Below are positions 6,273-47,289 of a stretch of DNA of 64,000 nt, piece after piece; the first letter of the stretch is position 1; each line of letters opens with the position of its first letter. The stretch is taken from assembly GCA_964535955.1 (NCBI GenBank), contig CAZHVK010000004.1, positions 70,222 to 134,221 of the forward strand. The letters run 5' to 3'. The notes below the pieces were generated by a model that was not told where the DNA came from, ran no database searches, and was given only the letters and a program-made list of their open reading frames with translations. Source of the DNA: an uncultured Methanosarcinales archaeon (GTDB lineage Archaea; Nanobdellota; Nanobdellia; Woesearchaeales; CAXGTL01). The position numbers and the translations under genes were made by a program.

Positions 6273-6680
6273 ATGACTAACCTAGAAAACAAAATAGACA
6301 AAGAAAACAAAAAAGACAAACCAGAAATTAATGTTTTTGGTGTTTTGACAGTAGGTCTTGCATCAGTTGTTTTAACAATATGCGGGCTTTACATTGGGCT
6401 TGAGATGTATGAAACTGGAAGACATGCCAAAGTAAGACCAATAAAAGAATCTCTTTGGGATATCAAGGTTGCGAGAAGTTGTGATGAAAAAGACTATGGA
6501 TTCAATGCTTATATGGATGAAAAAACAGGAGAAATAATCTACTTAGATGAAAATCAAAGACTAGTAGATTCAGACGCACCACCAGGCATAGAATCAAGAG
6601 AAAAAGGAACATATTTTTCAGAAGAAGATTTGATAGATGACTGGAAATTCATAGGTAATAAGGAGTTGGATCAAGAATGA
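6273..6680 (+). CDS. membrane-anchored hypothetical protein
   Basis: MTNLENK start, single TM. Confidence 0.65.
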   Translation: MTNLENKIDKENKKDKPEINVFGVLTVGLASVVLTICGLYIGLEMYETGRHAKVRPIKESLWDIKVARSCDEKDYGFNAYMDEKTGEIIYLDENQRLVDSDAPPGIESREKGTYFSEEDLIDDWKFIGNKELDQE

Positions 6681-17313: not shown

Positions 17314-17505
17314 TTAACTTTCTTCACTCAATCCTTCATCAATATCATCTAATGTTGACCCTACATTACTAATATCTTCACCAAGTTCACCTACTTTTGC
17401 AGCAGCTTCTTCATCAGACTTAACATCACTTGTTTCACAACCAGTTGCTGTTAAAACTACTATCACTAACATCATTATTATTAATAAACAAATTATCTTC
17501 TTCAT
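17314..17505 (-). CDS. small lipoprotein
   Basis: Signal peptide with ATGC lipobox-like Cys; overlaps stop of upstream gene. Confidence 0.65.
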   Translation of the reverse strand: MKKIICLLIIMMLVIVVLTATGCETSDVKSDEEAAAKVGELGEDISNVGSTLDDIDEGLSEES

Positions 17506-20500
17506 TGTTGTTCACCTCCTTGATTTGTTTCACCTTCTCCTTCAGATTCTCCTTCACCTTCTGCTTCTCCTTCTACTGGCTGTGGTGCTTCACCTTCTCC
17601 TTCACTTTCTCCTTCAGATTCTCCTTCACCTTCGCCCCCATCACTATCATCTCCTATATCTGGTTCATCAATATGATCATGAGGCATATCAGGATAACCT
17701 AAACACACACAATTATCATTTACACAATCTGTGTTTTGATCACCACATTCTTGATGACAACCATCTGCACATTCACTTACTTCATCTTCATAATAACATT
17801 CACACCTGTTATTTATACAATCTGTTCTTGAAGATCCTGGACAATCAGCAGCACAATCATCACACCCTGGTCCAACAGCTTCAACATCTGATAAATGTCT
17901 GTCACATGCTTCTCTTGAAAGTGCACCAACTCTTACACAATCAGGATCCAGTTTAGATGTATCTGGTTCAGGCTGTCTAAAGTCTATACATTTTATATCA
18001 ACAACACATTTGTAACCTTGTGATTCATCATATATTGGTTCATCACCTGCATTTGGTCCATACTTTCTCTGACATTCTGCTTTTTCCCTTTTCCAATCTG
18101 CATCTGTAAAACAAGGTCCTTCATAATGTTTAGTGCATTTTTCTTCACATTCTTTACACTTAGGGTTTTCATAACCATCACCAGGCATACAAAAAGTATC
18201 ACCAACACATTCCATGATGCATTGTTCTTCTTTACTTATTGGCATTGGTTGAGGTCCTGGATAATATACTCCAGAATCTCCTTCTTTTTCAGACCTACAA
18301 GATCCAGGTCCTTTACTTTTACTAGGATCTTTACAATATATTAGTTCACCTTTTCCCATAACACAATTACCACTACCACTTCCTTCAGGACATTCTCCAT
18401 CCAATACTTTTGATGTTCCTTTAGGACATTTGTCATTAATATCAACAATACATGCTTGTGGCAAACCTTGGCAGCATTTTCTTGTGAACATTGGTCCATA
18501 TGGATCTGGTCCTGCTCCACCACCAAAATGTCTAGGTTCTGGTCCTTCATCAGGTCTACCAAAACATTTTGCTTCACATCTTTGACAATCAGGGTCAGGA
18601 TCATACATTGGTCTGCATGGTTTATCAACACATTCCATCATACATCTTTCTGCTTCATTTCTTGGCTCTGGTCCACCTCTTGGTCCGCCAGGCCCTCCTG
18701 GCCCACCATGCATTTCAAACATCTCTTTCATCTTACCTTCACAATATGGCATAAGATCTTCTGGTCCCATCATTCCAAATGCATAATTTGGATAAAAACA
18801 AGTCATATCCATTTTACCCATTGGTGTATCAGCAAATGCATATATTTTACATTTTTTATTTTCCACTCCAACAATTTGAACAGTTGTTTTTGGATCTTCA
18901 GGTGGATGGAAATCATATGCTTTACATATTCTTAGATGTTCATCAAATATTCTTCCATCATCAGGATAATATTCATCACCATATTCATCTCTAAGCTCAT
19001 CAAATTCCAGATCAAATTCAGGCATTTCTATTTCACCTAATTCTTCAGCAGGTGTAAACATTACATAAAGAATATCATTTAAAATAACTTCTTTAATATA
19101 TTTGATATCATGTTTTATAGATATTAAATCTTCTTTTGATATTTTTCCTATCCTTCCTCTTATATCTAGCATTAGTTCATTGACTTTCCCTTTTGCACCT
19201 TCAAACATTCCTGCAACTCTTTGGAATTTTTCAGCATTTGCATCATCGCCTTGTGATTCATGATACTTTGCTAAATCTTCTGCTTTTGCACTTAATTTAT
19301 CAAATTCTACATTTAATTGTTCTAATTTTAATGCAATATCCATCAATGTTCCAACATCAATATTTTCTCTAACATCTTCATATTCAATTTTGTTTTCATC
19401 TCCTCTTCTTACACAATCAACAAAACCAACACATCCTTTATCATCAAAATTAACAATTAGTTTTCCACCTTCATATTCACATTTTTTATATGCTTTTTCC
19501 GGAGGTCCTTGTTTATTGCAAAATTCTCTTTTTCCTTGTGTTCCTCCTTCACATTTGATAAATTCAGTACATCCTTCTGTATTATATTTGATAATTAATT
19601 TTCCACCACTTGGCTCACAATTTTCAGTTTCTGGATTTTTTGGTGGAGGGCTACATCTCGCACCTTGTTTTTGTATTGTATGAGGTTTTTCACATAATGT
19701 GATTGGACATCCTTGAGGATCAAAACCTTTTATAGGTGTACCACCATTTTCTCCACACCTTGTTTTTATTTCCCTTCTAAAGGAATTATCATCTTCTGCA
19801 CATGCTCCAAATCCTCTTCCTTCATCAAACTCTTCATGAACACAATCAACAAAATTACATCCTCTTTCATTTTTAATTATTGTTTTTCCACCTGTTTCTT
19901 CACACTTTCTTTTTACATCATCTAATTCTTCAGGAGGAGGACATTCTGTTTCCCTTTGTTCAAAAAATGCTCTTTCTTTCTCATTTTCTTTAGGTCCTTT
20001 TCTACCAAACCTACAATCAACAAACATACATCCTCTATCACCAGGAAGTATTTTAGGATCACCACCATCTTTACCGCATTGTTTTGCTTTTTCACTAACT
20101 TCATAATTAGAAGGACAGTTTTCTTTTTTGAATTTTTTTTTTGTTTCTTTATTTTCATCACATATTATCCTAAAATTACCATATTTATCCTCTTTACCAA
20201 AACATCCAGGAGGCATATCTGGTTTTTTATCTTTCATTTCTTGTCTTTTTTGTTCATCTAATTCTCTCATTTCATCTTCAAATTTTAATCTTGATTTTTC
20301 ACTATCTTCTTCCCATTGTCTTCGTTCTTCTTCCCATTGTTTGTCTTTTTCTTCATCATGTCTTTGCCATTCATCTTCTTTTCTTTTCCAATCATATTCT
20401 CTTCTTTCATCTTCTGGTTTCCATCTTTCGTCTTCTCTCCATTCATCTGTTCTAGTTCTTTCACTTTCTTGTTCCCACCTTCTTTGGTCATCCTCTCTAT

Positions 20501-20975
20501 GATCATCTACATAATTATCATCTCTATGATCATCTACATAATGGTCATCTCTATGATCATCTACATAATTATCATCTCTATGATCATCTACATAATTATC
20601 ATCTCTATGATCATCTACATAATTATCATCTCTATGATCATCTACATAATGGTCATCTCTATGGTCATCTACGTAATTATCATCTCTATGATCATCTACG
20701 TAATTATCGTCTCTATGATCATCTACATAATGATCATCTTGTTGAAAATCATCTTTAGGTTCATCATGCATTACTGGCTCTTGATGCATTGGTTCAGAAC
20801 TTTGTTGTGGCTCAGGAGCCGGAGCAGTTTCACCACCAGCATCAACATTACCTTCATCAACTTGTCTTCCAGTGATTATATTTCCACTAAAGAAATCATC
20901 AAAAAACCCAGCGCTTGCAACACTCGCAAACAGAACAATTATCAAAAACACACTTAGAAATTTATTTTTATTCAT
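17502..20975 (-). CDS. large exported Cys-rich protein with Asp/His nonapeptide repeats and acidic GE tail
   Basis: AGGTGG SD before ATG 20975; signal peptide; 9x DD(H/N)YVDDHR; repeated C-x3-GG...GC-x3-C modules. Confidence 0.8.
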   Translation of the reverse strand: MNKNKFLSVFLIIVLFASVASAGFFDDFFSGNIITGRQVDEGNVDAGGETAPAPEPQQSSEPMHQEPVMHDEPKDDFQQDDHYVDDHRDDNYVDDHRDDNYVDDHRDDHYVDDHRDDNYVDDHRDDNYVDDHRDDNYVDDHRDDHYVDDHRDDNYVDDHREDDQRRWEQESERTRTDEWREDERWKPEDERREYDWKRKEDEWQRHDEEKDKQWEEERRQWEEDSEKSRLKFEDEMRELDEQKRQEMKDKKPDMPPGCFGKEDKYGNFRIICDENKETKKKFKKENCPSNYEVSEKAKQCGKDGGDPKILPGDRGCMFVDCRFGRKGPKENEKERAFFEQRETECPPPEELDDVKRKCEETGGKTIIKNERGCNFVDCVHEEFDEGRGFGACAEDDNSFRREIKTRCGENGGTPIKGFDPQGCPITLCEKPHTIQKQGARCSPPPKNPETENCEPSGGKLIIKYNTEGCTEFIKCEGGTQGKREFCNKQGPPEKAYKKCEYEGGKLIVNFDDKGCVGFVDCVRRGDENKIEYEDVRENIDVGTLMDIALKLEQLNVEFDKLSAKAEDLAKYHESQGDDANAEKFQRVAGMFEGAKGKVNELMLDIRGRIGKISKEDLISIKHDIKYIKEVILNDILYVMFTPAEELGEIEMPEFDLEFDELRDEYGDEYYPDDGRIFDEHLRICKAYDFHPPEDPKTTVQIVGVENKKCKIYAFADTPMGKMDMTCFYPNYAFGMMGPEDLMPYCEGKMKEMFEMHGGPGGPGGPRGGPEPRNEAERCMMECVDKPCRPMYDPDPDCQRCEAKCFGRPDEGPEPRHFGGGAGPDPYGPMFTRKCCQGLPQACIVDINDKCPKGTSKVLDGECPEGSGSGNCVMGKGELIYCKDPSKSKGPGSCRSEKEGDSGVYYPGPQPMPISKEEQCIMECVGDTFCMPGDGYENPKCKECEEKCTKHYEGPCFTDADWKREKAECQRKYGPNAGDEPIYDESQGYKCVVDIKCIDFRQPEPDTSKLDPDCVRVGALSREACDRHLSDVEAVGPGCDDCAADCPGSSRTDCINNRCECYYEDEVSECADGCHQECGDQNTDCVNDNCVCLGYPDMPHDHIDEPDIGDDSDGGEGEGESEGESEGEGEAPQPVEGEAEGEGESEGEGETNQGGEQQ
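20496..20738 (-). repeat. in-frame 27-bp tandem repeat, 9 copies
   Basis: Unit GATGAT(A/C)ATTATGTAGATGATCATAGA with a few synonymous changes; no unique spacers. Confidence 0.95.
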
Positions 20976-21104
20976 TAATACCACCTTCTTTTTTATTAAT
21001 AAAACAATGATTAGTATAATAATTACTAATCTCACTTATTTAGAAGGATGATATATATAAAGTTAACGTTAAAATTATAAGAATATATACCATAAAAATA
21101 AAAA

Positions 21105-21618: not shown

Positions 21619-22611
21619 ATGCAATCAATAATAAAAGTAAAAAACTTAAAAAAAAGCTTTAAAACATTCAAAAGAGAAGCTGGTTTATTTAATGCATTCA
21701 AGTCAATGTTTACAAGAAAATATAAATTGACATATGCATTAAAAGGAATCAGTTTTGAAGTACCAAAAGGTGAGATATTAGGCTTTATAGGGCCTAATGG
21801 TGCTGGTAAATCAACCACAATTAAAGCCTTGTCAGGTATACTTTACCCTAGCTCAGGTATTGTTAAGGTAATGGGCTTTGTACCATGGAAAGATCGTGTA
21901 AAATATGTCAAGAACATAGGTGTAGTATTTGGGCAAAAGTCTCAGCTTCATTGGGATCTGCCTCCAATAGACACATATTACTTGAACAAGGAATTATATC
22001 AAACCCGTGATAAATCATTCAAAAGAAGACTAAAATATATGGTTGATTTATTAGACCTTCATGAGGTTATAAAAACACCTGTAAGAGATCTTTCCTTAGG
22101 TGAACGAATGAAATGCAAACTAGTAGCAGCATTACTACATAATCCTAGTATTGTGTTTTTAGATGAACCTACAATTGGGCTTGATGCAATTGCAAAACAC
22201 AAGCTAAGAGAGTTTGTTAAATATGTTAATGAGAAATATAAAACAACATTCATCATAACAACTCATAATATGGATGATATTGAGAAACTGTGTAAAAGAA
22301 TAATAATTATTAACAATGGTGCTATTGTATATAATGGTGCATTAGACAAGATCAAGAAAAGCTATGTCAAGTATAAATTATTAGATGTCAAATTTGATGA
22401 TAAAGCACCAGGCTTTAGATTCCCTGGGTGTAAAGTTATTTCAAGAGACAAGTATGAACTAAAGATAGAAGTAAACACAGAAAAACAATCAGTAAAATCA
22501 GTTGTTGATTACTTGATAAAACACTATCCTTTTGAAGATTTGATTATCAGTGATCCACCTATTGAAGAGATTATTCAACTTATTTATCAGTCAAAGAATA
22601 AGATAGAATAA
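21619..22611 (+). CDS. ABC transporter ATP-binding protein (ABC-2 exporter type)
   Basis: GPNGAGKST, LSLGER, FLDEPTIGLD, TTHNM. Confidence 0.95.
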   Translation: MQSIIKVKNLKKSFKTFKREAGLFNAFKSMFTRKYKLTYALKGISFEVPKGEILGFIGPNGAGKSTTIKALSGILYPSSGIVKVMGFVPWKDRVKYVKNIGVVFGQKSQLHWDLPPIDTYYLNKELYQTRDKSFKRRLKYMVDLLDLHEVIKTPVRDLSLGERMKCKLVAALLHNPSIVFLDEPTIGLDAIAKHKLREFVKYVNEKYKTTFIITTHNMDDIEKLCKRIIIINNGAIVYNGALDKIKKSYVKYKLLDVKFDDKAPGFRFPGCKVISRDKYELKIEVNTEKQSVKSVVDYLIKHYPFEDLIISDPPIEEIIQLIYQSKNKIE

Positions 22612-22620
22612 AAAAACAAA

Positions 22621-22730
22621 ATGAAACTGGCGTCTGTAAGACAAGTGAGTACCCACACAGATCATAAGAAAACAAGGACTTTCAATACAACATTAGAAAA
22701 ACATTGAAAGTACGAACGAGCCAGTTTCAT
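22621..22730. ncRNA. putative structured element, copy 1 (homologous to 45795-45908)
   Basis: Terminal IR ATGAAACTGGC/GCCAGTTTCAT; inner hairpin ACTTTCAAT/ATTGAAAGT; core CGTCTGTAAGACAAGTGA and GAACGAG shared with copy 2. Confidence 0.6.
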
Positions 22731-22820
22731 GATCCTTCCATACCTACCCCCAACCTCCCACCCTAGCAAGGTATAAGGTAAATAAAGGGTAAATAAAATA
22801 AAACAAAAACCAAAAGAAAA

Positions 22821-23621
22821 ATGAACATAAAAAAATACACAGCATTAATGAGAATAGGATTTAAAATAGCTGTGGCTTACAGATTCCATGGCATAGTTTC
22901 AATAATCATGACTCCAGTTTCATTGATTGTGTTTTATTTTTTATGGCAATCTATTTATTCATACACAGGAGAAACATTGATAAGAGGTTTTACATTTGAA
23001 GCATTGATAGGTTATTATGCACTTTCAATGATAATTGCCTTTTTTACGTGGAGCCATGTTGATAAAGATATAGAATCTGATGTAAGGCATGGTCACCTAA
23101 TCTTTAAAATGTTACAGCCAGTAAGTCATTGTTTGAATAGTTTTTTCATTGAACTGGGTATTCATAGTTATACAATTTTAATAGAAACAATTCCAATATT
23201 TTTGATAGGATATTTATTTTTTTATGTACCATTAGTTTCAGCAATAACAATAACTTTATTTTTCATATCATTGATGATGGCAGCTGTCTTATATTACCAG
23301 TTTGCATATTTTTTAGGATTATCAGCATTCTGGTTAAAAAGAATAGATGGAATCAGAAGGATGAGATCTCCATTGATAGCATTTTTATCAGGAGGAATCC
23401 TACCATTAACATTTTTTCCAGTATGGTACACAGACATACATCATTTACTACCATTCCAATACATGAGATATGTTCCAATCATGATTTATTTAGAACAAGT
23501 GCCATTTAACAATGTTTTATTATTAATGTTAGGTCAGTTTTTATGGATACTTGGCTTTGCATTTATCATAAAAATAATTTGGAACATTGCATATAAAAAA
23601 TTTTCAGGTGTAGGAACATGA
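22821..23621 (+). CDS. ABC-2 family permease
   Basis: 6 TM; FLSGGILPLTFFP..LPFQY. Confidence 0.9.
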   Translation: MNIKKYTALMRIGFKIAVAYRFHGIVSIIMTPVSLIVFYFLWQSIYSYTGETLIRGFTFEALIGYYALSMIIAFFTWSHVDKDIESDVRHGHLIFKMLQPVSHCLNSFFIELGIHSYTILIETIPIFLIGYLFFYVPLVSAITITLFFISLMMAAVLYYQFAYFLGLSAFWLKRIDGIRRMRSPLIAFLSGGILPLTFFPVWYTDIHHLLPFQYMRYVPIMIYLEQVPFNNVLLLMLGQFLWILGFAFIIKIIWNIAYKKFSGVGT

Positions 23622-24400
23622 GATATTTTAGAATATTTTGGAAATATGTAAGTCTTGATTTAAGTAGTGAATTCAGGTATAAGCTAAACATAGCTATGAA
23701 ATTCCTAAGCTTGATTATAATGGATTTCATAGGTCCATTGATAGCATTACTTATCTATGCAAATACTTTAGGAATTCCTGGTTGGACATTGTATGAGTTT
23801 TTACTATTCCAAGGAACTCTTACAATAGTGCTTGGTTTAGGCCATGCATTTGCATTCAGGTTTGCTTGGGAAGTGATGGACATGGTCAGACATGGTGAAC
23901 TGGATAAAATAATGGTTAAACCATTAAAACCTTTGACAAATCTGATGCTAGGATCATTTAATTTTCCAGGTGTAGCAGAAATAACAGCAGGCTTAGTTAT
24001 AATAGTTATAGCACTATCAAACCTTAACCTTGGTTTTACATGGAACTATATTCCTTATATAATGTTTATCTTACTAGGTGTCTTGTTTCAGCTTGGTGTG
24101 GCAACTTTGATATCAGCATCTGCAATATTATTCATAAAATCATGGGCATTGTTTGATGTTTGGTTCCATACTATCAATTTTGCTAGATACCCTGCTATGA
24201 TATTCAGCCTTGGAATCAGGTTCATAATCACATTTATATTTCCAATTGCAGTTGCATCATTTTTTCCAGCAGCAGCATTATTAGGAAGACTATCATTATG
24301 GGAAACTACATTACCAATGCTTTCAGTGATTGTGTTTTATATAGTGACACGTATATTTTGGTACATGGCAATGAGAAAGTATACAAGTGCTGGTGGGTGA
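23618..24400 (+). CDS. ABC-2 family permease
   Basis: GELDKIMVKP, FARYP, C-terminal YTSAGG. Confidence 0.9.
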   Translation: MRYFRIFWKYVSLDLSSEFRYKLNIAMKFLSLIIMDFIGPLIALLIYANTLGIPGWTLYEFLLFQGTLTIVLGLGHAFAFRFAWEVMDMVRHGELDKIMVKPLKPLTNLMLGSFNFPGVAEITAGLVIIVIALSNLNLGFTWNYIPYIMFILLGVLFQLGVATLISASAILFIKSWALFDVWFHTINFARYPAMIFSLGIRFIITFIFPIAVASFFPAAALLGRLSLWETTLPMLSVIVFYIVTRIFWYMAMRKYTSAGG

Positions 24401-24443: not shown

Positions 24444-26756
24444 TTAAATAGAAACATACTTATGCACAACTTCTTTGATATAATCTAGATCATGCAATCC
24501 ATTAACAAATCTAGAAGGGACCTTTTCAAATCCATTATATGCACCGCTTATTGCACAAGCCATTGCACCAATTGAATCAGAATCACCAGAATGATTGATT
24601 GAAGTTATCAATGTTTTTTCAAAATCATCAGGACTGTGTAAAAAACTATACAAAGCACATGGTATTGTTCCAAGTGTACCTTTTCCTTTTCTTTTTTTGA
24701 CATCACGTGTTAAAGGCAGCTGCTCCAATGCTTCTGCTGGGTCTTGATCAATCATTTGGTTAAGGTATTGAAGTTCTGTTGCAAGTTCTAGTGATATTGG
24801 CTTTATTTTTTCAATTATTTCATCTAAATATTTTTGTTTATCAAATCCTGGTTTAAGATCATATGCTTTTTGTATTGCATAACCAATTGCCAGAGAACCT
24901 GCAATTGCTAGATTATTTTTGTGAGTTATTTTAGCTTGCTTGATAAGATCTTCTTCTAAATCCTTTGCTTGGGCAGATACAGGAGCAACCCTCATTGCAG
25001 CACCGCAACCAGTTGAATCATTTCCAGTGAATCTCCAATTAACACCTGCATACAATTTTCTAAAAGCCATTAGTGCCATGTATCCATAACCAATGTTTTT
25101 ATCAAAATCATCATCTATTTGTTTTCCAATTTCTCCAAATCTTTTTGATATGTCATATGGATCTATATATCCTCTGTCCACAACAGAATTTATTATTTCT
25201 AGAGCAAGTTCTCCATCATCACTATAACTTCCTGCAGGCATTTGATATCCTCTTCTGTGAAGATTATCAACATAGTCATCAACAGTACCGAATATTCTTT
25301 TTATTTTTTCAATAGGTAGTCCTTCAATAGGCAATCCCATTGCATCTCCAATTATTGTTCCATAGATACTTCCTTTAACTTTATCCTTATTATTGTTTAA
25401 CCTTGGTTTTACTTGTTTTTCCAACTTTTCAGAATCAACCATTGATTCAACAAAATTTAAAATATCTTTATCTCTTTCTTTTGAAAAATCATAAGACTTC
25501 ACAATTTTAGGATTTAATCTAGACATAAGTCTTATTGCTTCTTCTCTTACACCAGGATCTTTGTCACTAAAATAATTTAATATTCTTTTTTGACCAGCTT
25601 CATCAATATTTTTCATTCTTCCAATCATATTGATTGCAAGCGACCTTATGTATGGATCTTCTGAATCAAGTCCTTGAGATATTTCTGTTTTATACTCATT
25701 TAGGTTTGTCTCATGCAACAAAAGCGCAGCATATGTCCATTTATCTCTATCATCTTCTGATAAATATTCTAATGCAAGTTTACTTACTTTTTCATGTTTA
25801 AACCTTGATAACGCTCTTCCTGTAGTCCATCTGACAAGCATATCAGAATCATCTAATCTTTTGACAAGATAATCAATTGATTTAGGATTTTGTATATAAC
25901 CAAGTGTTTGAGCAGCATATTTTCTTATTCTTCCGCTGTTATCATTTAATAATTTATGAAGTAATATCATTGTTCTTCTGATTGGTGTGTGTTTTATTTT
26001 TTTCATAGCTTTTATTTTTTTGTCTCTTGAATCCCCATTTATCATCTCTAGTGTTTTTACATAATCCTCTACTTCATCAGATAAAGGCATTAATTCATCT
26101 GTTGGAACAAAAACAGCATATGATATTTTTTCTTTTTTAAGATGTTCTATAACTTTTCCATTTAACAAGTGTCTAAGACCTAAAATTTGAAACTTTTTTT
26201 CTGGAAACTTAGTGATTCCAAAATCTCCATATACAAAATTATAATCTCTTTGATCATTTATTTTTTGGAATTCTTCTACAATTCTTTCATTTTCCTCAGT
26301 CATTTGTAGATAATTCTCAGGCAGTTTATTTCTTATTTCTCTCAATTTTTCAACTAATTTATGATCATCATTAAATACACATATAACATTTCTATTACCT
26401 AGTTGTTTTTTAATATCATGTATATAACTTTCAGAAACATTAAAATATTTATAGATCACTTTTCCATTAAACCCTTCCATAAGTATTATATTTTCATGTT
26501 CAACACAGTCTAAGAGCACTTTTTCAATATTCTCAGCAAACCATTCAATATTTTGAGGATGATAATCACCTATTAATATTACATCAGGATCATCAGAAGT
26601 ATGATCATACAATACAAAACCTTCTTGTTCCATATTTTTATTTATATTATCTAGATAAGAATCTTCTACAATAGCAGTTAAATTTCGAGACTCATGACTC
26701 TTTTTTAATCTGTCTAATGATTCTCTTGAATTAAGTTCTTCTGGTCTTTTTTTCAT
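24444..26756 (-). CDS. three-part fusion: possible TraB/EreA/ChaN-like N-domain + HEAT repeats + ADP-ribosylglycohydrolase
   Basis: C-term IGDAMGLPIEG, YSDDG, GCGAAMRVAP, ITH, GDSDSIGA; central VRW..GRAL / VREEAI HEAT repeats; N-term LIGDYH..MEG..LGLRH (N-domain call weak). Confidence 0.85.
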   Translation of the reverse strand: MKKRPEELNSRESLDRLKKSHESRNLTAIVEDSYLDNINKNMEQEGFVLYDHTSDDPDVILIGDYHPQNIEWFAENIEKVLLDCVEHENIILMEGFNGKVIYKYFNVSESYIHDIKKQLGNRNVICVFNDDHKLVEKLREIRNKLPENYLQMTEENERIVEEFQKINDQRDYNFVYGDFGITKFPEKKFQILGLRHLLNGKVIEHLKKEKISYAVFVPTDELMPLSDEVEDYVKTLEMINGDSRDKKIKAMKKIKHTPIRRTMILLHKLLNDNSGRIRKYAAQTLGYIQNPKSIDYLVKRLDDSDMLVRWTTGRALSRFKHEKVSKLALEYLSEDDRDKWTYAALLLHETNLNEYKTEISQGLDSEDPYIRSLAINMIGRMKNIDEAGQKRILNYFSDKDPGVREEAIRLMSRLNPKIVKSYDFSKERDKDILNFVESMVDSEKLEKQVKPRLNNNKDKVKGSIYGTIIGDAMGLPIEGLPIEKIKRIFGTVDDYVDNLHRRGYQMPAGSYSDDGELALEIINSVVDRGYIDPYDISKRFGEIGKQIDDDFDKNIGYGYMALMAFRKLYAGVNWRFTGNDSTGCGAAMRVAPVSAQAKDLEEDLIKQAKITHKNNLAIAGSLAIGYAIQKAYDLKPGFDKQKYLDEIIEKIKPISLELATELQYLNQMIDQDPAEALEQLPLTRDVKKRKGKGTLGTIPCALYSFLHSPDDFEKTLITSINHSGDSDSIGAMACAISGAYNGFEKVPSRFVNGLHDLDYIKEVVHKYVSI

Positions 26757-26842
26757 TATTCTGCCTATGTTTATATATGACTTTATTTTAATATTATATT
26801 GATATTATATAGCACCTACATATATATAATTACTAGAACTAG

Positions 26843-26858
26843 TATATAAATCTTTTGT
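26843..26858 (-). promoter_or_regulatory. BRE/TATA promoter for the ARH fusion gene
   Basis: Minus strand ACAAAAGATTTATATA in the intergenic gap upstream of the gene. Confidence 0.5.
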
Positions 26859-26913
26859 TTTTTACTACTCAAAAGTAATCCTTCAAAACCCTTCAATTAT
26901 ACCTCTACAAGCT

Positions 26914-29900
26914 CTAAGAAGCTGCTTTCAGCATTTTTATTGCTTCTTCCCTTGTATGTATCAGGCCTTTAGCTTGCCAAGATTTAACCATGTTCATGTA
27001 CTTGCCTACTTCTGGTCCTGGCTTGACCTCTTTTATACTCATTATGTCACCACCTGTCAAGAATGGTTTTGCTTTAGGAGCTGGTTTAAGACTGAAATCA
27101 CCCAATGGTTTGGGCTTTAATTTAACAATATTATTGCCAAGATCCACCACATCTCCTCCTTCTAGACCAGATAAATGGGCATAAACACTCATCCTAGTCT
27201 CAGGACTTACATGTTCAGGTACACTCTTTCCTGGAATACATCTTCCCCACCCATCACCTTCAACCAAAACAACCTTTACTTTGCCTAACTGTCCTGTTTT
27301 TTTAAGTAATTCAATTACTTCATCTCTTCTTTCCATACTAGCTACAATCACACCTTTTGATAGGTCTGTTTGTTCAAATGGATGATGTCCTTCTATTCTT
27401 CCAAAAGCAGTATAATCATTTGCTCTTGCAGCACCACTTTCACCAAGTGTACTAGCATAATATTCATACCTTGATTCCGGTGTGTCTAATATTTCTTCTA
27501 GTTTTTCTCCTTGTTTTATTCTTTGTTTAATTTGTTCTTCAACTGGGTTTTTTTGTTTATTTGGTTTTGATTCTACATACTGTCTATACTTTGGATCATT
27601 TAATATGTCTTCTAATTTTTCACCTTGTGATAGTCTTTTGTTCATTTGTTCTAAAAATTGATTTTTTGGTGATTTTGGATTTGTTTCTAAATAATATCTA
27701 TACATATCTTGTTCAGTGAATGAACCTTTTTTTATCTGTTCTAAAGAATAACCTTTTTGTAATTTTCTTTCTACCATATCAATTACCATATTTTCACTAA
27801 GAAACTCTTTTGCATTTTCAGCATCCATAACACCATCTATTTTTTTACCAAAAGAGGTTCCTCCTTTTTGTAAAGCTATATTTTTTTGCACACCATTTTT
27901 AAGATCGCCAGGTAAATAAACACTTCCATCATCCAGAATTCTGGGCAGATAAAAAAATTCTACATCACCATATTGGTACGATGGATCAAGCATAGTAAAC
28001 ACATCTCCTTTAGATCCTTTTAAAGCATCTCTTGGACTTGGAATATCACGAGGTTTTAAAGAACCTGTTTCCAAGATTCTTTCAAGATTTTCAAAACTAG
28101 TTGAATGTGAATAACCTAAACTTTCTACTACTGCTTTTGACTGCCCTCTAAATTCCTGCATCAATGCTTGTATTTCTTCTGGTTTGACACCTGTTCTTGC
28201 AGCTACTTGTTGTATTTGTTGTTGTACTAATACTTCTCTGTTGTGCACAGAATTTTTCATTGCATTTTCCCTATACACTCTGAACATTGCTTCATCAAAA
28301 GCAGCATTATCTTCTTGTCTTAGTTTTAATAGATCATGTTCTTCTTTTATCACACTTTTTCTATCTGTATCTTGAGTCAATGTGTGTTCTATTTTTTGTC
28401 TCATTGATGCAACACTTTCTTCAGAAGCTTTTGCAGTGCTAAACCCTTCCATGTCAGACTGAAGTACTACACTAAATTCTCCCTTTTTTGTCACAAACAA
28501 TATTGTTTCCAAACCATTTTCAGATTTTATCACATATCCTGGACAACCATTTTTAACACTCCTGAACTCAATATTAGGATCATTAAGATTTATCTCTTTT
28601 CCTTGATAAACAATCACAGGACTACCATCACTGCCTTTTAAAACAGAAAGATCATCATCAAGATTTTCAAATGATATAAGTGCTGCTTGATCAGCTTTAT
28701 ATTCTCCTTGTAATAATACTGCTGCTTTTTCTGAAAATCTATCTTTTCCAATCTTTAGCTCTTGTCTTATCTTATCATCTAATGCATCTGCCACACCTGC
28801 ATCTTCTGTAACTGCATCATTCACTTTTTGTTCCAAGCTTGCATCAACTTGTTCTCCTTTTAGATAGAATTCAGTTTGAATTTCTTTTGCAGTCATCAAT
28901 CTTTTTAGGTCATCTGTTGTAGGTTCAGACATTTCAGCATTAAAAAGTGCTTGCAAAGTCATTGGTTCATCTATTGTTTTTCCATCTAATGCTGCTATTG
29001 CTTGTTCAAATTTATACTGTGCATCTGCTGCTTTGAACATTTGTTCCATGCCTTGTTTGACTTCAGTAATATCATGAAACCTTGGACTATTAAGATCAAC
29101 ATTTTTTGCAATAAAGAATGAATTGCCATTAGGATCCATGACTTTCCATCCACCTTCAAGTACTTCCATGTTTTTTAGAGCTAATTTACCTGCATTAAAT
29201 GTAGTGTCAGCTGCAAGAACATTCAATGTTTCACCATCAATAACAGTAAGTTTTGAAGTAGCTTCTAGACCTTGTTCAAGAAGATAATCAGCATCAGGCC
29301 CACCATCCAGAGCCATAACAAGTAATTCTAATGATGGATGAATATATCCTGCACCTTCTTCTATTACTTCGACACCAACTTCTGCTAATACTTTTGTAAC
29401 AACTCCTCCAGCATGTCCTAATTTTGCTTTAGCCAGAGCAAGTGTTTTTACCATCTTAGCACCAGTTGTTGTTGATGACAACAAAGCACCACCACCTTTT
29501 GCAATCAAACCATATCCTGCTAATGCAGCAGGGTTTGCAATTGCAAAAGCAGTTGAACCAATGCTGTATTGAGCAAATTCATCACCTACTAAGAATGCAT
29601 CTTTGAATTTTGATCCAGACCCTTCACCAGTTATACTTACATAAAGTTCTTTTGCTTGAGCAGCGATCTTTTCATCAGTTGAAGCCATTAATTGTTTTGA
29701 TATTACTGATGCTGCTGCTTGAAAATTATCTTGTGATCTGTATTTGATAGCAGCTTGAAGTTTTTTTGCTTCTATTTCCTCAACACTTGGTAATTCTTTG
29801 TTCCATCCTTGTGTTTGTATTGCAACTTGCATCATTGGATTATTTTCCAAAGATTCAGAAACAGCTTGTGTATACAATATTGTTTCTCTTGTTCTTGGGT

Positions 29901-32439
29901 CAGCGATTCTTAGTTCAGAATTAATTCCAGTAATTCCTTCTCTTTCAAAAATATTAACTGTTTCTCCTGTATCAATGTCAAAACTCATCCCATTATTTTT
30001 AATCAAATGGATAGCTGTAGGAATATCAGGTGCAATTCCTTTTTGTATAAGTTCAGAAGCAAAATTAAGCCCTTGTGACAAAACAACTTTATCATACTCA
30101 ACAATGTCTAATGCACTAAACTGTTCTTGTACAACATCTACTCCAAAATCAGCAATATTTCCAGGATTTAAAGCTGCAAATGCATTTGCTATGGAGATGT
30201 CTTTTGAAAAATCTTTATAAGGTTTTTTTAATCTTTGTTCCCATTGTTGATATCCTACTTCATTATTTTTTAATGCAACCCCAATATAATTTAATGAATC
30301 TAATTTTGTGATTGTTTTTTTAGCTTGTTTTCCTTCAGTGCTAATAGGATCATGTTTGATAATATCATTAAGATATTGTCTTGCAATATCAGTATTTCCA
30401 TGCCTGGAATAATATGCTGCAAGTTCTAATGAAGCAATACTAGCTTGTCTACTTCCTTTATGTTGAGAAGCTACTGATATTAATTCTTTTCTTCCTTTAG
30501 ACAAGTCACCTTTTGCAAAATATGCATGCGCTTTCATCAGATCCTGCATATTCTCTCCTAAAAACAATTGTGATTTTTTTGCACTTAACAAGTTTACAGA
30601 AGTTCCTTGTTTTAATTCTAGTTTTCTTATTCTGTTTTTAAGTTCTTTATAAAATTTCTCTCTTCCTTCAAGATGAAAAATAGCTTTTTCTTCCTGACTA
30701 TCTAGTTCAGTTAACTTTTTCTTTAACAACTTTAGTTCTTTTTCTTCAGATTCAGTCAGCCTGCTCTCAATATTATTGCCATACCTTATACCAAATATAT
30801 GATTAACACCAAAATATGCTTGTCTATCACCTAATTCTACCATTATGTCTTTATCAATTGCTAAAAATTTATCAGGATCAATATCAATATCTGCTAACAA
30901 TGCAAGGCTTTGTTTATCAAACTCTAGTTCTGGTTTGCCATCCTTGTTGACAACAGTTGTTTTGATTCTCATTGTGCCAGATACAAATCCTTGTTCTGCT
31001 GATAAGTCACCTGTCTTTACTTTTTTTGTTACTTCTGCAACAGCTCCATCCTGATCACTTTTTATATGGATTGACTCATCATCTTTGCTTACAATTATCT
31101 TACTATTTGTTCTATCCTGTAATCCTTTGCAATTACTATGTGGAGTATCAACTTCTACTTTTCCTACTGTTGCAACACCTTGTATCTCTCCTGCATCAAT
31201 GATCATTACCAATGATTCACCAGGAACCACACTCTTTTTTAGTTTAGCTGCCTTTTCTCCAACCACATTTATATCAAAATAAAGATTAGCAGCTGCAGAA
31301 TCGTGCTTGACCTTTATATCATTCTTTTTATCAGAATATTTTCCATCCTTTGACAATAATTTTGCTGTTCTAAGATAATTGCCTCCTCCAAACTCTACTT
31401 CAAACTCTCCTGAAAACAAATGCTGTCTGTCATCACTTGCTTCACTGAATATTTCACCAAACTCTGTTTCAGCATCTTTTGCACTCAACTTTTTCCAGCT
31501 ACCATCTTGGTTAAATTCAATTTGTGAAACTCCTTTAATCCTACCATGTAATAAGTCAGTTAATGAAGAACTCTTATCCAATAATTCAACACTACTAAGT
31601 TTTTCATTTTCTAGCTTAGCTACAAACTTACCTCTTATCTCTTTCATGCCCATTACAACTTCTGCATTGTCAGCACTTATCTCTTCAGAACTTATCATAA
31701 GTGTTCCTTCAAAATTAATAAACTCACCTAATTCAAACTCTCCTTCAGCATAGCCTTTGACAATTGTCTTAAGTTCTTCTATCTTCATATTTGTACCAGG
31801 AGCAATCTCAGAAACAACAAGTCCTGTCTTAGGGTCGACAACAGCACCGCCTGTGTTAAATGTGATAGAGCCGTCTTTTTCTAATACCATTTGTTCTCCT
31901 TGAACACCCATATTTCTTGGTTCAAACACAAACTCATTGTCTTCAGAATCATAACTTATCTTTGTCGCACCGTATGGAATCTTTCCTTGTTCTTCATCAC
32001 CTATTGTTAAGATAAGTTCACTGGTCTTTTCTTGATCACCATCATCATACTTAAACTTTATTTTAGCAGGATCATCTGAAAACTTCATACCTTTTACAAC
32101 ATTAAATTCAATCTCTTCATTACCAATCAAGTTTTGCATGTGCTTGTTAAATGCTTCAGCATTTTCACTTATGTCAACTTTAGAAAAATACTTATTGATA
32201 GATTCTCTATTTTCTTCAACATCTAGATTTTCCAGGTCACTAAAAAACTTTTTAGCACATTCAAGACACTCTTCAACATTCTTGGGATCTTTGAAAAATT
32301 CTATCTGTTTTTCATGAGGATACGCTTCAAACCAGCTTATATCTTTTTCTTCAGCATTAGCCTCATCACCATTTTCTCCAATAACATATAGGCTACATAA
32401 AACAATTACAATCATTAAAAAATACATTATTTTCTTCAT
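26914..32439 (-). CDS. giant exported protein, putative polymorphic toxin (stalk, TPR-like segment, hydrophobic region, ART-like domain, CCA-enzyme-like tail)
   Basis: Signal peptide; TPR-like LELAAYYSRHGNTDIARQYL; Ala/Gly-rich hydrophobic region; YSHSTSFENLERILETGSLKP...YGDVEF...RIEGHH; terminal PFLTGGDIM..KPGPEVGK...TREEAI. Confidence 0.7.
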   Translation of the reverse strand: MKKIMYFLMIVIVLCSLYVIGENGDEANAEEKDISWFEAYPHEKQIEFFKDPKNVEECLECAKKFFSDLENLDVEENRESINKYFSKVDISENAEAFNKHMQNLIGNEEIEFNVVKGMKFSDDPAKIKFKYDDGDQEKTSELILTIGDEEQGKIPYGATKISYDSEDNEFVFEPRNMGVQGEQMVLEKDGSITFNTGGAVVDPKTGLVVSEIAPGTNMKIEELKTIVKGYAEGEFELGEFINFEGTLMISSEEISADNAEVVMGMKEIRGKFVAKLENEKLSSVELLDKSSSLTDLLHGRIKGVSQIEFNQDGSWKKLSAKDAETEFGEIFSEASDDRQHLFSGEFEVEFGGGNYLRTAKLLSKDGKYSDKKNDIKVKHDSAAANLYFDINVVGEKAAKLKKSVVPGESLVMIIDAGEIQGVATVGKVEVDTPHSNCKGLQDRTNSKIIVSKDDESIHIKSDQDGAVAEVTKKVKTGDLSAEQGFVSGTMRIKTTVVNKDGKPELEFDKQSLALLADIDIDPDKFLAIDKDIMVELGDRQAYFGVNHIFGIRYGNNIESRLTESEEKELKLLKKKLTELDSQEEKAIFHLEGREKFYKELKNRIRKLELKQGTSVNLLSAKKSQLFLGENMQDLMKAHAYFAKGDLSKGRKELISVASQHKGSRQASIASLELAAYYSRHGNTDIARQYLNDIIKHDPISTEGKQAKKTITKLDSLNYIGVALKNNEVGYQQWEQRLKKPYKDFSKDISIANAFAALNPGNIADFGVDVVQEQFSALDIVEYDKVVLSQGLNFASELIQKGIAPDIPTAIHLIKNNGMSFDIDTGETVNIFEREGITGINSELRIADPRTRETILYTQAVSESLENNPMMQVAIQTQGWNKELPSVEEIEAKKLQAAIKYRSQDNFQAAASVISKQLMASTDEKIAAQAKELYVSITGEGSGSKFKDAFLVGDEFAQYSIGSTAFAIANPAALAGYGLIAKGGGALLSSTTTGAKMVKTLALAKAKLGHAGGVVTKVLAEVGVEVIEEGAGYIHPSLELLVMALDGGPDADYLLEQGLEATSKLTVIDGETLNVLAADTTFNAGKLALKNMEVLEGGWKVMDPNGNSFFIAKNVDLNSPRFHDITEVKQGMEQMFKAADAQYKFEQAIAALDGKTIDEPMTLQALFNAEMSEPTTDDLKRLMTAKEIQTEFYLKGEQVDASLEQKVNDAVTEDAGVADALDDKIRQELKIGKDRFSEKAAVLLQGEYKADQAALISFENLDDDLSVLKGSDGSPVIVYQGKEINLNDPNIEFRSVKNGCPGYVIKSENGLETILFVTKKGEFSVVLQSDMEGFSTAKASEESVASMRQKIEHTLTQDTDRKSVIKEEHDLLKLRQEDNAAFDEAMFRVYRENAMKNSVHNREVLVQQQIQQVAARTGVKPEEIQALMQEFRGQSKAVVESLGYSHSTSFENLERILETGSLKPRDIPSPRDALKGSKGDVFTMLDPSYQYGDVEFFYLPRILDDGSVYLPGDLKNGVQKNIALQKGGTSFGKKIDGVMDAENAKEFLSENMVIDMVERKLQKGYSLEQIKKGSFTEQDMYRYYLETNPKSPKNQFLEQMNKRLSQGEKLEDILNDPKYRQYVESKPNKQKNPVEEQIKQRIKQGEKLEEILDTPESRYEYYASTLGESGAARANDYTAFGRIEGHHPFEQTDLSKGVIVASMERRDEVIELLKKTGQLGKVKVVLVEGDGWGRCIPGKSVPEHVSPETRMSVYAHLSGLEGGDVVDLGNNIVKLKPKPLGDFSLKPAPKAKPFLTGGDIMSIKEVKPGPEVGKYMNMVKSWQAKGLIHTREEAIKMLKAAS

Positions 32440-38083: not shown

Positions 38084-39283
38084 TCACTCAAGAAAACAAT
38101 ACAGATTATAATCTTTCTCAATAAGATCGCAAACTTTTATCAATCTTATGTCAAGACCATCTTCTTTAGCTCTTATAGCTTCTTCATAAGAACCATCTTC
38201 ACCATGTGAAAAAGAAAAAGCAATAACAACACCTTTTGTCTTACCTTTTCTTCTCATCGCTGTTTCAAACTTATCAACCCATTCTCTTCCAACTTTTTCT
38301 ACTTTTTTTATAGAGATAGCGACTTGTGGATCATTTATAGGATACATCCCATCAATTCCTTTATCTCTTGTTGCTGGTGACCTTTGTGCACCTAAAATAT
38401 CGCAGATATAATGCTCAAATGCAATTGGTTTTAATTTTTCTAATTTCCTAATACTTAATTTTTCTAATTCATTTATGTCTGGTTTAAGATTAATACTTTC
38501 AACATATGAAACATTTCCATGCTTTTCCATTCTTTCCATTATGTCTTTACATAATATAGGAGAAATATCAATTCCAATATACTTTCTACCTAATGATTGC
38601 GCAATCTCTAGTGTCTGACCATTGCCGCACATTGGATCAACCACATTATCATTTTCATCAGTGCTTAATAATATTAATAATTCAACAAGATTTCTAGGTT
38701 TTCTTCTTTTATAACATTTGTATAATTGTTTATCTTGTTTATCAGGATCAATTTCCCACACATCACCATTTATTTCAATACCTTGTTTATTATTATATTC
38801 TTCAATAATCTCTTTATTAAATGTGATTAGTTTTTTATCACTTGGTTTTCTTATCTTAACATATCTTAGAATTACATCATATTTTTTATCAATATCTTTT
38901 TCTCTTGGTCTTCCTGATTTTTTCTTAACACTCCACACAATTCTGTTCCTGCACTTATCTCTTCCATTAAAAATATCATCCATCTTCATCTTAAGATAAT
39001 CAACATAATCAGGATTACAATGCAGATACATTGTGCCACCAGGTTTTAAAACCCTATGACATTGTTCTAATCTGAGTTCTACCCATGACAGATAATGCCT
39101 TATGCCGCCTTTTTTCATTTCTTCAAACATTTCTAATGTGTATTCATCATACTCTATTCCTTTTTTTCTTTTTACAGGAATATCAGCATATATAATATCA
39201 ATAATATTACTTTCAAAACCATCTCTAAAAACATCATAACAATCTCCACAGCATATTAAATTGTCTTCTAAACTGATTTGCAT
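38084..39283 (-). CDS. N6/N4 DNA methyltransferase fused to Mrr-like endonuclease, with degenerate motifs
   Basis: IIYADIPV, RVLKPGG, RNRIVW, VVDPMCGNGQT, IGIDIS; C-term FEHYIC..DKGIDG..ISIKK..KGVVIAFSFS. Confidence 0.85.
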   Translation of the reverse strand: MQISLEDNLICCGDCYDVFRDGFESNIIDIIYADIPVKRKKGIEYDEYTLEMFEEMKKGGIRHYLSWVELRLEQCHRVLKPGGTMYLHCNPDYVDYLKMKMDDIFNGRDKCRNRIVWSVKKKSGRPREKDIDKKYDVILRYVKIRKPSDKKLITFNKEIIEEYNNKQGIEINGDVWEIDPDKQDKQLYKCYKRRKPRNLVELLILLSTDENDNVVDPMCGNGQTLEIAQSLGRKYIGIDISPILCKDIMERMEKHGNVSYVESINLKPDINELEKLSIRKLEKLKPIAFEHYICDILGAQRSPATRDKGIDGMYPINDPQVAISIKKVEKVGREWVDKFETAMRRKGKTKGVVIAFSFSHGEDGSYEEAIRAKEDGLDIRLIKVCDLIEKDYNLYCFLE

Positions 39284-43197: not shown

Positions 43198-43470
43198 CTA
43201 ATTAAATATCCATATCCTTCTACCCTTAACCTTGCTCCACACATAGATATTTCTTATTCTTTTATCTTTCCTATCAAATGTACTTCCAATAGTAATGTCA
43301 AAATTTGTAATAGGAGCACCTGTTCTTCTTTTTCTCACATCTATCTCACTAAACTCTCTCCATTCTTTACCAAAGTCTATAGGTGCATCATCAACTACAT
43401 TTCCGCACCTAGTACAATAGACTATGGTTGATTCAACTTTCAATATTCCATTACATTCTCGACATTTCAT
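43198..43470 (-). CDS. stand-alone TFB/TFIIB N-terminal module (zinc ribbon + B-reader)
   Basis: KCREC...YCTRCGNVVDD..IDFGKEWREF...RRTGAP; ATGA overlap with upstream gene. Confidence 0.88.
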   Translation of the reverse strand: MKCRECNGILKVESTIVYCTRCGNVVDDAPIDFGKEWREFSEIDVRKRRTGAPITNFDITIGSTFDRKDKRIRNIYVWSKVKGRRIWIFN

Positions 43471-45773: not shown

Positions 45774-45794
45774 ATTAACCACCTTTGTTAGTTC

Positions 45795-45908
45795 TGCTGA
45801 AACCCTCGTCTGTAAGACCAGTGAACCAAGGTTAAACCTCGTCAGATGACATTGGTGCTCCATTTGATTTTGCATAGATTGGAGCAGGTGAACGAGTGGG
45901 TTTCAGCA
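45795..45908. ncRNA. putative structured element, copy 2, in the 5' leader of the VIT-vWA-TFB operon
   Basis: Terminal IR TGCTGAAACC(C)..CTCGT / ACGAG..GGTTTCAGCA; hairpin TGCTCCA/TGGAGCA; core CGTCTGTAAGACCAGTGA and GAACGAG. Confidence 0.6.
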
Positions 45909-46401: not shown

Positions 46402-47289
46402 ATGGAACCAAAACTAGACCTTGTCAAAGGCTGTATATTTGGACTGGCAATAGGAGATGCACTTGGAGCAACAGTTGAAAACCTAAATTCTACACAAATA
46501 AAAAACAAGTTTGGTATATTGAAAGATATTCTAGGTGCTGGATGGTTAGGTCTAAGACCAGGCCAGTTCACAGATGATACACAAATGATGTTATGCTTAG
46601 CACATTCTTTAGTAGAAAAAAAAGGTTTTGATATAAATGACATTGCACATAGATATGTTATATGGAAAAATTCTAATCCACCAGACATTGGCAGAACAGT
46701 TAGAAAAGCAGTTACTAATCTAGAAAATGGTGTTCCACCTACAAAGTCAGGCATTCCTGCACCAGCAGCTGGAAACGGCAGTGTAATGAGATGTGCACCA
46801 ATTGGAATAGCATTTTGTAATTCTAAGTTTTTAGAAGAATATTCAATGCTTGACTCAGGAATAACACACGCAAACCCAATGTGCAGAGAATTGTGTGCAA
46901 TGATTAATCTTATGATTTCAAAATTAATAAAAGGTGAAGAACTTAAACAGGTTTTTAAATCAGTAACTTCAAAAATAGATTACAAAGACAATCAAACAAT
47001 TGTTTTTGGAACACAACCTGCTAATTATCCATCTGCATACATACTAGACACATTACCAACAGTATTTGCAGCACTTAATAATAATTCAGACTTTGAATCA
47101 ACATTAATAACAGTTGTTAATTATGGTGGTGACGCAGACACAACAGGTGCAATTTGCGGTGCAATTGCAGGCGCTTATTATGGTTTTAGTTCTATACCTA
47201 AAAAATGGTTAGATAAGATAGATTGTTATGAAGAATTAGAAAAGGTTAGTATTGGTTTGCTTGAGTTGAGTAAAAAGATAAAGAAATAA
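46402..47289 (+). CDS. ADP-ribosylglycohydrolase (DraG/ARH family)
   Basis: GLAIGDALGATVE, FTDDTQM, GNGSVMRCAP, ITH, GGDADTTGA. Confidence 0.95.
   Translation: MEPKLDLVKGCIFGLAIGDALGATVENLNSTQIKNKFGILKDILGAGWLGLRPGQFTDDTQMMLCLAHSLVEKKGFDINDIAHRYVIWKNSNPPDIGRTVRKAVTNLENGVPPTKSGIPAPAAGNGSVMRCAPIGIAFCNSKFLEEYSMLDSGITHANPMCRELCAMINLMISKLIKGEELKQVFKSVTSKIDYKDNQTIVFGTQPANYPSAYILDTLPTVFAALNNNSDFESTLITVVNYGGDADTTGAICGAIAGAYYGFSSIPKKWLDKIDCYEELEKVSIGLLELSKKIKK

Follow-up and report, generated by a model that had tools for sequence, protein, structure and literature searches.

The genes P0015, P0001 and P0002 form a conserved Woesearchaeota cassette, here described from a 64-kb stretch of contig CAZHVK010000004.1 of an uncultured archaeon (the whole stretch is called the window). 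P0001 encodes a giant protein with an export leader, a variable stalk and a conserved C-terminal head, and the adjacent P0002 encodes a protein that ends in an ADP-ribosylglycohydrolase (ARH) domain. The head contains a candidate catalytic core that matches no known family and closes with a small homologue of the tail domain that class II CCA/A-adding enzymes carry. We assign a probability of roughly 40% to the reading that the giant is an exported effector directed at RNA or tRNA, probably acting by ADP-ribosylation, with the ARH protein as its enzymatic protector. An initial annotation of this DNA had proposed a contact-delivered ADP-ribosyltransferase (ART) toxin beside an ARH immunity protein, an interpretation that is partly supported by the results below; the tail domain of tRNA-binding type, the pilin-like gene upstream and the three-domain build of the partner go beyond it.

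The window has a G+C content of 28–35% and carries archaeal markers (aCPSF1/FttA, a proteasome subunit and an archaeal-type ProRS); searches of it for tRNAs and for Rfam families gave nothing. The two co-oriented open reading frames (ORFs) of 1841 and 770 codons noted originally are present as described. Because an 1841-codon open frame in DNA of 30% G+C also has homologues elsewhere, the giant gene is real rather than a product of chance. A search for the locus in 185,579 species genomes gave 380 pattern matches, of which only two loci were confirmed (L001 and L002), each from a metagenome-assembled genome of Candidatus Woesearchaeota; the giant P0005 is encoded at L002 2618–11689. The order of pilin-like gene, giant gene and then ARH gene is kept in three of three genomes with known context, namely the window, L001 and L002; a fourth giant, P0007, is left out of this count. 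The giant and partner genes are 157 bp apart in the window and lie closer together in L001 (64 bp) and L002 (32 bp). Conservation of the ARH adjacency had been named beforehand as a test of the toxin/immunity proposal, and it holds in every genome counted. Beyond the cassette, no gene is common to the three loci. An ABC ATPase gene and two ABC-2 permease genes (21619–24400, forward strand), which run convergently with P0002, are not shared with L001 or L002 and thus are not part of the cassette.

To find relatives of the giant, we ran an exhaustive phmmer search with residues 1401–1841 of P0001 against 1.84 billion representative proteins (E ≤ 0.001). Eight proteins were returned: the giants P0004 (1436 aa), P0005 (3014 aa) and P0007 (1877 aa), one fragment of 109 aa, and four proteins that match the tail only. 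The tail-only matches apart, these three giants and the fragment are the only relatives of the C-terminal module among the representatives. Four giants are known in all, and the family may be larger than that. Word-indexed protein searches with the same residues and with alignment A2 gave no match each, which is uninformative since relatives were found by phmmer, and the best ESM Atlas score for the module (0.75) is below lead level. No match to the module was obtained by tblastn against plasmids and phages, and comparison of the giant with PADLOC and PHROGs gave nothing.

The region common to all four giants spans P0001 residues 1161–1840, which are 31–42% identical to the corresponding parts of P0004, P0005 and P0007 (BLASTP). 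The stalks are mostly unrelated in pairwise BLAST comparisons: the N-terminal and central parts of P0001 share only residues 421–553 with P0004, and the first 400 residues are common to P0004 and P0007. As judged from these alignments, the module is a conserved head carried on variable stalks, whereas classical polymorphic toxins are built the other way round. The initial annotation had anticipated homologues with the same stalk and different tips; the actual arrangement is the opposite, with one tip common to the four giants and stalks that differ.

The leader is the sole strongly hydrophobic stretch of 19 aa in P0001 (Kyte–Doolittle values up to 2.31, with no other stretch above 1.4). It is present in four of four giants, with peaks of 1.98–2.6, and is predicted to be a Sec-type signal peptide, which would then be cleaved, or a signal anchor; the original claim of an exported giant is supported, the protein being exported or anchored. 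Other features first reported for the stalk hold in weaker form. The TPR-like segment matches TPR_21 (residues 629–692, E = 3.9e-4) at 20.6 bits, below the cut-off of 25.5 bits, TPR_14 (E = 3.1e-3) is likewise below its cut-off, and a YbgF-like TPR model of NCBIfam gives E = 1.3e-5. The Ala/Gly hydrophobic region is present, with Kyte–Doolittle peaks of 1.23 (within residues 962–1030) and 1.09, but contains no clear membrane helix. Comparable Gly-rich segments occur in P0005 (1031, 1116) and P0007 (1011, 1101), a comparable pair is absent from P0004, and some interaction of this region with a membrane is conceivable. Pfam families for Rhs/YD repeats, FHA, PT-VENN and HINT pre-toxin domains were not found.

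The module begins with a beta-rich pre-domain (residues ~1250–1330), followed by a long helical linker containing the motif LRLRxQDPxxFDEAM and then by the H-x-T core. Downstream of the core lie an insertion specific to P0001, a GRIE-H beta-alpha-beta unit, two hairpins and the three-helix tail. Conservation peaks in the core, where 37–40% of the positions between residues 1461 and 1520 are invariant among three giants, the maximum for the module. Invariant residues include H1445, T1447, E1453, R1470, D1471, K1474, D1479, F1481, Y1490, G1491, D1492, the LPGDL motif (1509–1513), N1515 and G1516. Since the most conserved part of the module is also the part with charged and Gly-rich motifs, it looks catalytic, and we regard the core as a candidate catalytic domain whose motif set resembles an active site. 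Searches of Pfam, NCBIfam, PHROGs and PADLOC place it in no family.

The strings quoted in the initial annotation are all in place, with YSHSTSF beginning at residue 1443 (base 28113), DVFT at 1479, YGDVEFFY at 1490 and RIEGHH at 1681. The H-x-T..L..IL..G.L string, read there as the opening of an ART fold, is kept in four of four homologues. In its strict form this pattern, which was written after seeing the sequence, occurs once in the 23,172 aa of window frames against 0.01 occurrences in shuffled frames. Both H1445 and F1481 are conserved in all four giants, as are the candidate acids D1492 and D1512, and E1683 is conserved in the three sequences that cover its position. In the GRIEGH motif, R1681, I1682, E1683 and H1685 are invariant (3/3), and the P0004 counterpart of this unit is modelled with predicted local distance difference test (pLDDT) values of 82–91. 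The insertion that separates it from the core in P0001 is absent from P0004 and P0005 (alignment A2, columns 439–516).

A hidden Markov model search found no second internal copy of the core in the other giants. A possible diverged second H-x-T core lies at about residues 1357–1410 of P0005 (WTHNAPITSINAIFDSGVIKS...YGEIKFVM), where the hhalign match covers 51 columns and is not significant (E = 0.033). In P0007, the FHGSSSKSLSGIF stretch near residue 1203 did not align to the core (hhalign E = 0.51, around 1202).

The tail is the sole significant link between the module and known proteins. Profile A2 matches the tail of the Aquifex nucleotidyltransferase (PDB 3wfo) at E = 2.3e-8 and that of a CCA enzyme (9ns4) at E = 6.5e-5, which establishes homology to class II CCA/A-adding enzymes. 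Positions 105–145 of the 149-position Pfam model tRNA_NucTran2_2 are also matched (E = 1.4e-3), at 19.1 bits against a cut-off of 27 bits. Consistent with this assignment, the four tail-only phmmer matches (P0008–P0011, aligned over the last ~60 residues) all carry the C-terminal portion of tRNA_NucTran2_2, and three also have a poly(A)-polymerase head, an HD domain or both. The tail is well modelled, with pLDDT values of 85–87 in the AlphaFold2 model of the module. Class II enzymes use this tail to hold the tRNA elbow, at its T-psi-C and D loops (PMC3925840). Homology to a tRNA-elbow anchor suggests that the head binds tRNA or a structured RNA like it, and the tail of the giant may bind the tRNA elbow as it does in CCA enzymes.

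The partner P0002 has neither a leader nor a hydrophobic segment, a leader is found in none of the three partners, and the protein is presumably cytoplasmic. Orthologues of 760 and 761 aa, P0013 (50% identity) and P0014 (44%), align over ~740 residues and follow the giant gene in L001 and L002 in the same orientation. All three partners consist of an N-terminal domain, HEAT repeats and an ARH domain, with the HEAT repeats present in both orthologues. For the N-terminal domain, Pfam searches at E ≤ 10 gave a best value of 0.0084 and no family common to the three orthologues, and ESM Atlas scores did not exceed 0.79, below lead level. A TraB/Tiki-like fold was tried for this domain and rejected, as the hhalign comparison with Escherichia coli YbaP gave E = 0.014 at a probability of 3% and aligned an unexpected segment.

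The ARH assignment made initially is confirmed. The match to PF03747 scores 182.8 bits against a cut-off of 26.2 bits and covers the full profile (1–287), and the orthologues score 180.3 and 186.9 bits. Among PDB entries, the closest is MJ1187 (1t5j, E = 4.6e-40), followed by ARH3 (~5e-18), DraG (1.1e-14) and Tri1 (6dre, 5.9e-9). The motifs GDAMG..E, SDDGE and GDSDS align with the GD..G..E, TDD and GDTD(S/T) motifs of MJ1187 and ARH3, and D471, E478, S510, D513, D514, E516, D725, S726, D727 and S728 are invariant in the three orthologues. By this alignment, the ARH domain of P0002 has intact metal and catalytic motifs. The window encodes a second, stand-alone ARH (46402–47289, forward strand, 295 aa, PF03747 E = 6.6e-75), and the genome therefore holds two distinct ARH paralogues. 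The two are 28% identical, which marks the P0002 domain as a dedicated paralogue. A word-indexed search with alignment A4 recovered, besides one HEAT protein that is unrelated, just two copies of the partner, both truncated.

The cassette opens with P0015, which has a pilin-like N-terminus (NKRGQ|LTVFIIIGIVLVIL), which we take to be a class III signal peptide or archaeal pilin-type signal, followed by a beta-rich extracellular part. Its hydropathy peaks at 3.4 at residue 18, and no Pfam family was matched. Homologues precede the giant gene in L001 (27% identity, E = 1.5e-18) and L002 (32%, E = 2.8e-21), and all three upstream proteins share the start K(K)RGQ(L/V)T(V/I)FI ahead of a strongly hydrophobic helix.

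The explanation that we favour, at the odds given above, combines these parts as follows. The giant would be exported through the Sec pathway, its variable stalk presenting the conserved C-terminal module as an effector that enters another cell, either a host or a competitor, sister cells included. There the module would act on tRNA or some other structured RNA, the most likely modification being NAD+-dependent ADP-ribosylation. P0002 would remain in the cytoplasm of the producer, undo the modification through its ARH domain and so protect the producer and its sisters; its HEAT repeats and N-terminal domain might additionally bind the effector. The presence of a leader in all four giants and its absence from all three partners yield a topology that fits a weapon and its antidote. 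Precedents exist: Tri1 is described as a DraG-like ARH whose N-terminal extension occludes the ART toxin Tre1 and whose ARH domain reverses the mark (PMC8120803), and ART toxins that modify tRNA and rRNA are reported (PMC13617354).

The following results on the core count against this explanation. At E ≤ 10, none of the five alignment members matches an ART family in Pfam, no ART is found in the giant with NCBIfam, PADLOC or PHROGs, and a profile search of the PDB places no ART chain among 21 sequences at E ≤ 10. When run blind, hhalign pairs the family segment THTTTFKSLEDILKVGEIKA with residues 104–123 of KptA from E. coli K-12, that is, with the H-G-T segment of the NAD lobe; this alignment of 20 columns is not significant (E = 0.77, probability 0.06%), and the module has no PTS_2-RNA match in Pfam. 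AlphaFold2 was run twice with five-sequence alignments, on a 342-aa C-terminus of P0004 that lacks the insertion and on the 681-aa module (P0012). Mean pLDDT values were 60.6 and 51.7, respectively, the core fell below 50 in both models, and residues 280–367 of the P0012 model (P0001 1440–1527) had block means of 24–30. Foldseek comparison of these two low-confidence models with the PDB counted 496 and at least 500 matches, respectively; none of them reached E ≤ 0.001, and no ART is among the matches listed for either. Such models speak neither for nor against an ART fold. Furthermore, the Glu of the originally quoted YGDVEFFY (E1494) is E, M, V and V in the four giants; because it varies across homologues, it is not a conserved catalytic residue.

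The same side of the balance holds features of the system as a whole. Neither orphan tips nor additional immunity or partner genes occur in the window, L001 or L002, and the cassette contains no known delivery machine. A transmembrane helix in the Gly/Ala region was considered and rejected, the hydropathy being too low. The tip is conserved and the stalks vary, unlike in classical polymorphic toxins, and the partner, at 770 aa, is large and shows higher conservation (44–50%) than the tip (30–42%). ARH-fold proteins are common housekeeping genes, and the window holds another ARH and a macro-domain protein.

ART clades often lack mutual sequence similarity, and thus null profile searches are weak evidence against membership; there are small ARTs of the H-Y-D or H-F-D kind, Arr and AcrIF11 among them, whose sequences show no detectable similarity (PMC8120803). 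The spacing of H1445, F1481 and D1512 would be compatible with an ART of the H-F-D type. A protector that works as an enzyme does not have to change in step with its toxin, and this would account for a partner better conserved than the tip. Nevertheless, neither sequence nor predicted fold places the core in the ART superfamily, and the resemblance to the KptA H-G-T segment is real but extends over 20 columns. A bolder proposal, in which the core founds an unrecognized ART clade that borrowed a tRNA-elbow anchor and the cassette would be the first contact-delivered, tRNA-ADP-ribosylating effector of DPANN archaea, with a pilus-associated giant and a three-domain ARH immunity protein, is one that we hold to be rather doubtful.

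If the core is not an ART, the giant might still be an exported effector that acts on RNA by some other chemistry, such as that of a new-fold tRNA nuclease or phosphotransferase. Protection would then come mainly from binding by the HEAT repeats and N-terminal domain of the partner, whose ARH domain would be accessory or act on a ribose product of another kind, small-molecule or RNA-linked. The uniqueness of the tail match, the missing ART signal in every search and the lack of a confident fold all agree with such an effector, and the conserved H1445, K1474 and H1685 would suit acid–base cleavage of RNA, as judged by eye. However, a dedicated ARH with fully conserved motifs that is linked to the giant in three of three genomes is hard to explain without ADP-ribose chemistry. 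In addition, no nuclease family was matched, and by eye the second motifs of two candidates fail: the second H-x-T/S motif of 2H phosphoesterases is not conserved across the homologues, and the R-x4-6-H spacing of HEPN domains is found in P0001 only. We consider this alternative unlikely.

The giant may also be no weapon at all. DPANN archaea rely on their hosts for nucleotides and carry giant surface proteins, and P0001 could serve an episymbiont in surface attachment or in interaction with its host, with a head that captures extracellular or host RNA, nucleotides or NAD-derived compounds and a HEAT-ARH protein that processes imported ADP-ribose-containing material or regulates the apparatus. 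The co-conservation of a pilin-like gene, the lack of orphan tips and immunity genes, and the pairing of a conserved head with a variable stalk, which suits a conserved ligand better than an arms race, all speak for this possibility. It leaves unexplained why a large, dedicated cytoplasmic ARH is kept beside an exported protein in all three genomes, the invariant charged motifs of the core look catalytic rather than adhesive, and no transporter belongs to the conserved set, the convergent ABC genes being confined to the window among the three loci. On balance we place it on the improbable side. Far less probable still is an intracellular writer–eraser pair resembling DraT/DraG, in which the giant would span the membrane through its Gly/Ala region and a cytoplasmic module would ADP-ribosylate a target of its own cell that the ARH resets. 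Moderately hydrophobic Gly-rich segments do occur in three of four giants, and the ARH domain does match DraG, but those segments reach Kyte–Doolittle values of 1.1–1.36, far below the 2.0–2.6 of the leaders, P0004 lacks a comparable pair, and a variable extracellular stalk of more than 1000 aa would be needless. An exported, RNA-directed effector with an ARH protector remains the reading that we prefer, with the tail suggesting its target and the ARH its chemistry.

Table 1. Coordinates in the window of the cassette genes and of the features within their products.
Feature	Coordinates	Strand	Residues	Remarks
Upstream gene P0015	32475..33530	-	351 aa	First gene of the cassette
Giant P0001	26914..32439	-	1841 aa	
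N-terminal leader	32365..32439	-	1-25	MKKIMYFLMIVIVLCSLYVIGENGD; predicted Sec-type signal peptide or signal anchor
Weak TPR-like segment	30337..30555	-	629-701	
Gly/Ala-rich region	29320..29577	-	955-1040	Moderately hydrophobic
Conserved C-terminal module (P0012)	26917..28959	-	1161-1841	~680 aa
H-x-T core domain	27673..28134	-	1436-1589	No family matched
P0001-specific insertion	27445..27642	-	~1600-1665	Two similar helical units (QGEKLEDILNDPKYRQY and QGEKLEEILDTPESRYEYY)
GRIEGH motif and beta-alpha-beta unit	27235..27432	-	1670-1735	LGKVKVVLVEGDGWG
C-terminal tail domain	26917..27102	-	~1780-1841	
Spacer between giant and ARH genes	26757..26913	-		157 bp, A+T-rich; TATA-like strings read directly
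Partner P0002	24444..26756	-	770 aa	Same orientation as the giant
P0002 N-terminal domain	26007..26756	-	1-250	Invariant ILIGDYHP...LMEG
P0002 HEAT repeats	25497..25979	-	260-420	HEAT_2, E = 3.6e-21
P0002 ARH domain	24510..25373	-	462-749	PF03747, E = 1.5e-53

Other genes in the surroundings of the cassette were recorded as separate observations. An exported protein of 1177 aa (17502–21035, reverse strand), encoded 3.4 kb from the cassette, is a second candidate for a large surface protein and matches no Pfam family. It has a leader, a run of roughly ten DDHRDDNYV repeats in tandem, a stretch rich in Glu, Arg and Trp, numerous Cys-rich units and an acidic tail of Gly and Glu. Also encoded are an N6/N4 DNA methylase (E = 7.5e-40) fused to an Mrr-type restriction endonuclease domain (E = 1.5e-7; 38084–39283, reverse) and an 802-aa protein with VIT and von Willebrand A domains (43467–45875, reverse). 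The macro-domain protein (63313–63906, forward; PF01661, E = 1.9e-44) is another protein that binds or removes ADP-ribose. Near its gene lie those for a Fic/DOC protein (58428–59345, reverse) and a minimal nucleotidyltransferase (60645–61193, reverse), together with one for a Bro-N protein (61889–62713, reverse; E = 3.8e-12), whose family is frequent among viruses and mobile elements. In L001, a 342-aa ORF (5274–6302, reverse) that by eye resembles a DDE transposase lies ~470 bp upstream of the cassette.

The dealings of DPANN archaea, Woesearchaeota among them, with hosts or rivals are poorly understood, and we know of no effector of defined chemistry that has been tied to their giant surface proteins. 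Our literature searches found no report linking DPANN archaea with ADP-ribosylglycohydrolases; those combining DPANN, ADP-ribosyltransferase and toxin found only a survey of defence systems, and among titles nothing matched on DPANN giant proteins and archaeal polymorphic toxins. The cassette offers a compact case, combining an enzyme-like domain of no known family with a tail that hints at the target and a dedicated ARH that hints at the chemistry. If the favoured explanation is true, ART/ARH conflict systems and RNA ADP-ribosylation would extend to archaea, and a new catalytic family would be added. Should the core found a new ART clade, it would give molecular access to the means by which these tiny archaea manipulate hosts or kill them. 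If these ideas are refuted, the module would still be a conserved, uncharacterized RNA-directed head on archaeal giant proteins.

The ARH domain of P0002 shares the full-length PF03747 profile and all metal and catalytic motifs with MJ1187-type archaeal ARHs, ARH3 and DraG, and differs from them in being fused behind HEAT repeats and an N-terminal domain of no known family. With CCA/CC/A-adding class II enzymes the module shares the last 60–75 residues, which are homologous to their tail, whereas their head, neck and body are absent and the tail is instead joined to an unrelated module on an exported protein. A CCA-enzyme tail joined in this way to an exported giant has apparently not been described. 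Tpt1/KptA, an RNA 2'-phosphotransferase and minimal ART, acts on tRNA, and its NAD lobe opens with an H-G-T motif and a helix ending in G-L that hhalign aligns with the H-x-T helix. This alignment is limited to the 20 columns noted above, and the N-terminal RNA lobe of KptA, which bears an R-H-R-R tetrad, has no counterpart in the module.

Polymorphic toxins of the CdiA/CdiI, Rhs and MafB types resemble the cassette in having a giant exported by a Sec leader, with a C-terminal enzyme domain and a protective gene directly downstream, both of them candidates here. Those toxins are defined by a conserved delivery stalk with variable tips and matching variable immunity genes, frequently accompanied by orphan modules, whereas here the tip is conserved, the stalk varies, pre-toxin families and orphan modules are missing, and the immunity candidate is large and enzymatic. 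Another parallel is Tre1/Tri1 of Serratia proteamaculans, in which a secreted effector gene likewise lies beside one for a cytoplasmic DraG-like ARH with extra N-terminal parts. P0002 matches the NCBIfam Tri1 model at E = 4.1e-14 and 52 bits, far below its cut-off of 490 bits, MJ1187 and ARH3 are much closer relatives, and the protein carries 450 extra residues that comprise the domain of no known family and the HEAT repeats. Moreover, the effector here is no recognizable R-S-E ART, its delivery is not by a type VI secretion system and its host is archaeal. With regard to the proposed target, tRNA and rRNA are established substrates of ART tips (PMC13617354); RNA-targeting tips include Tre-Thr, RhsP2 and Photorhabdus Tre23S.

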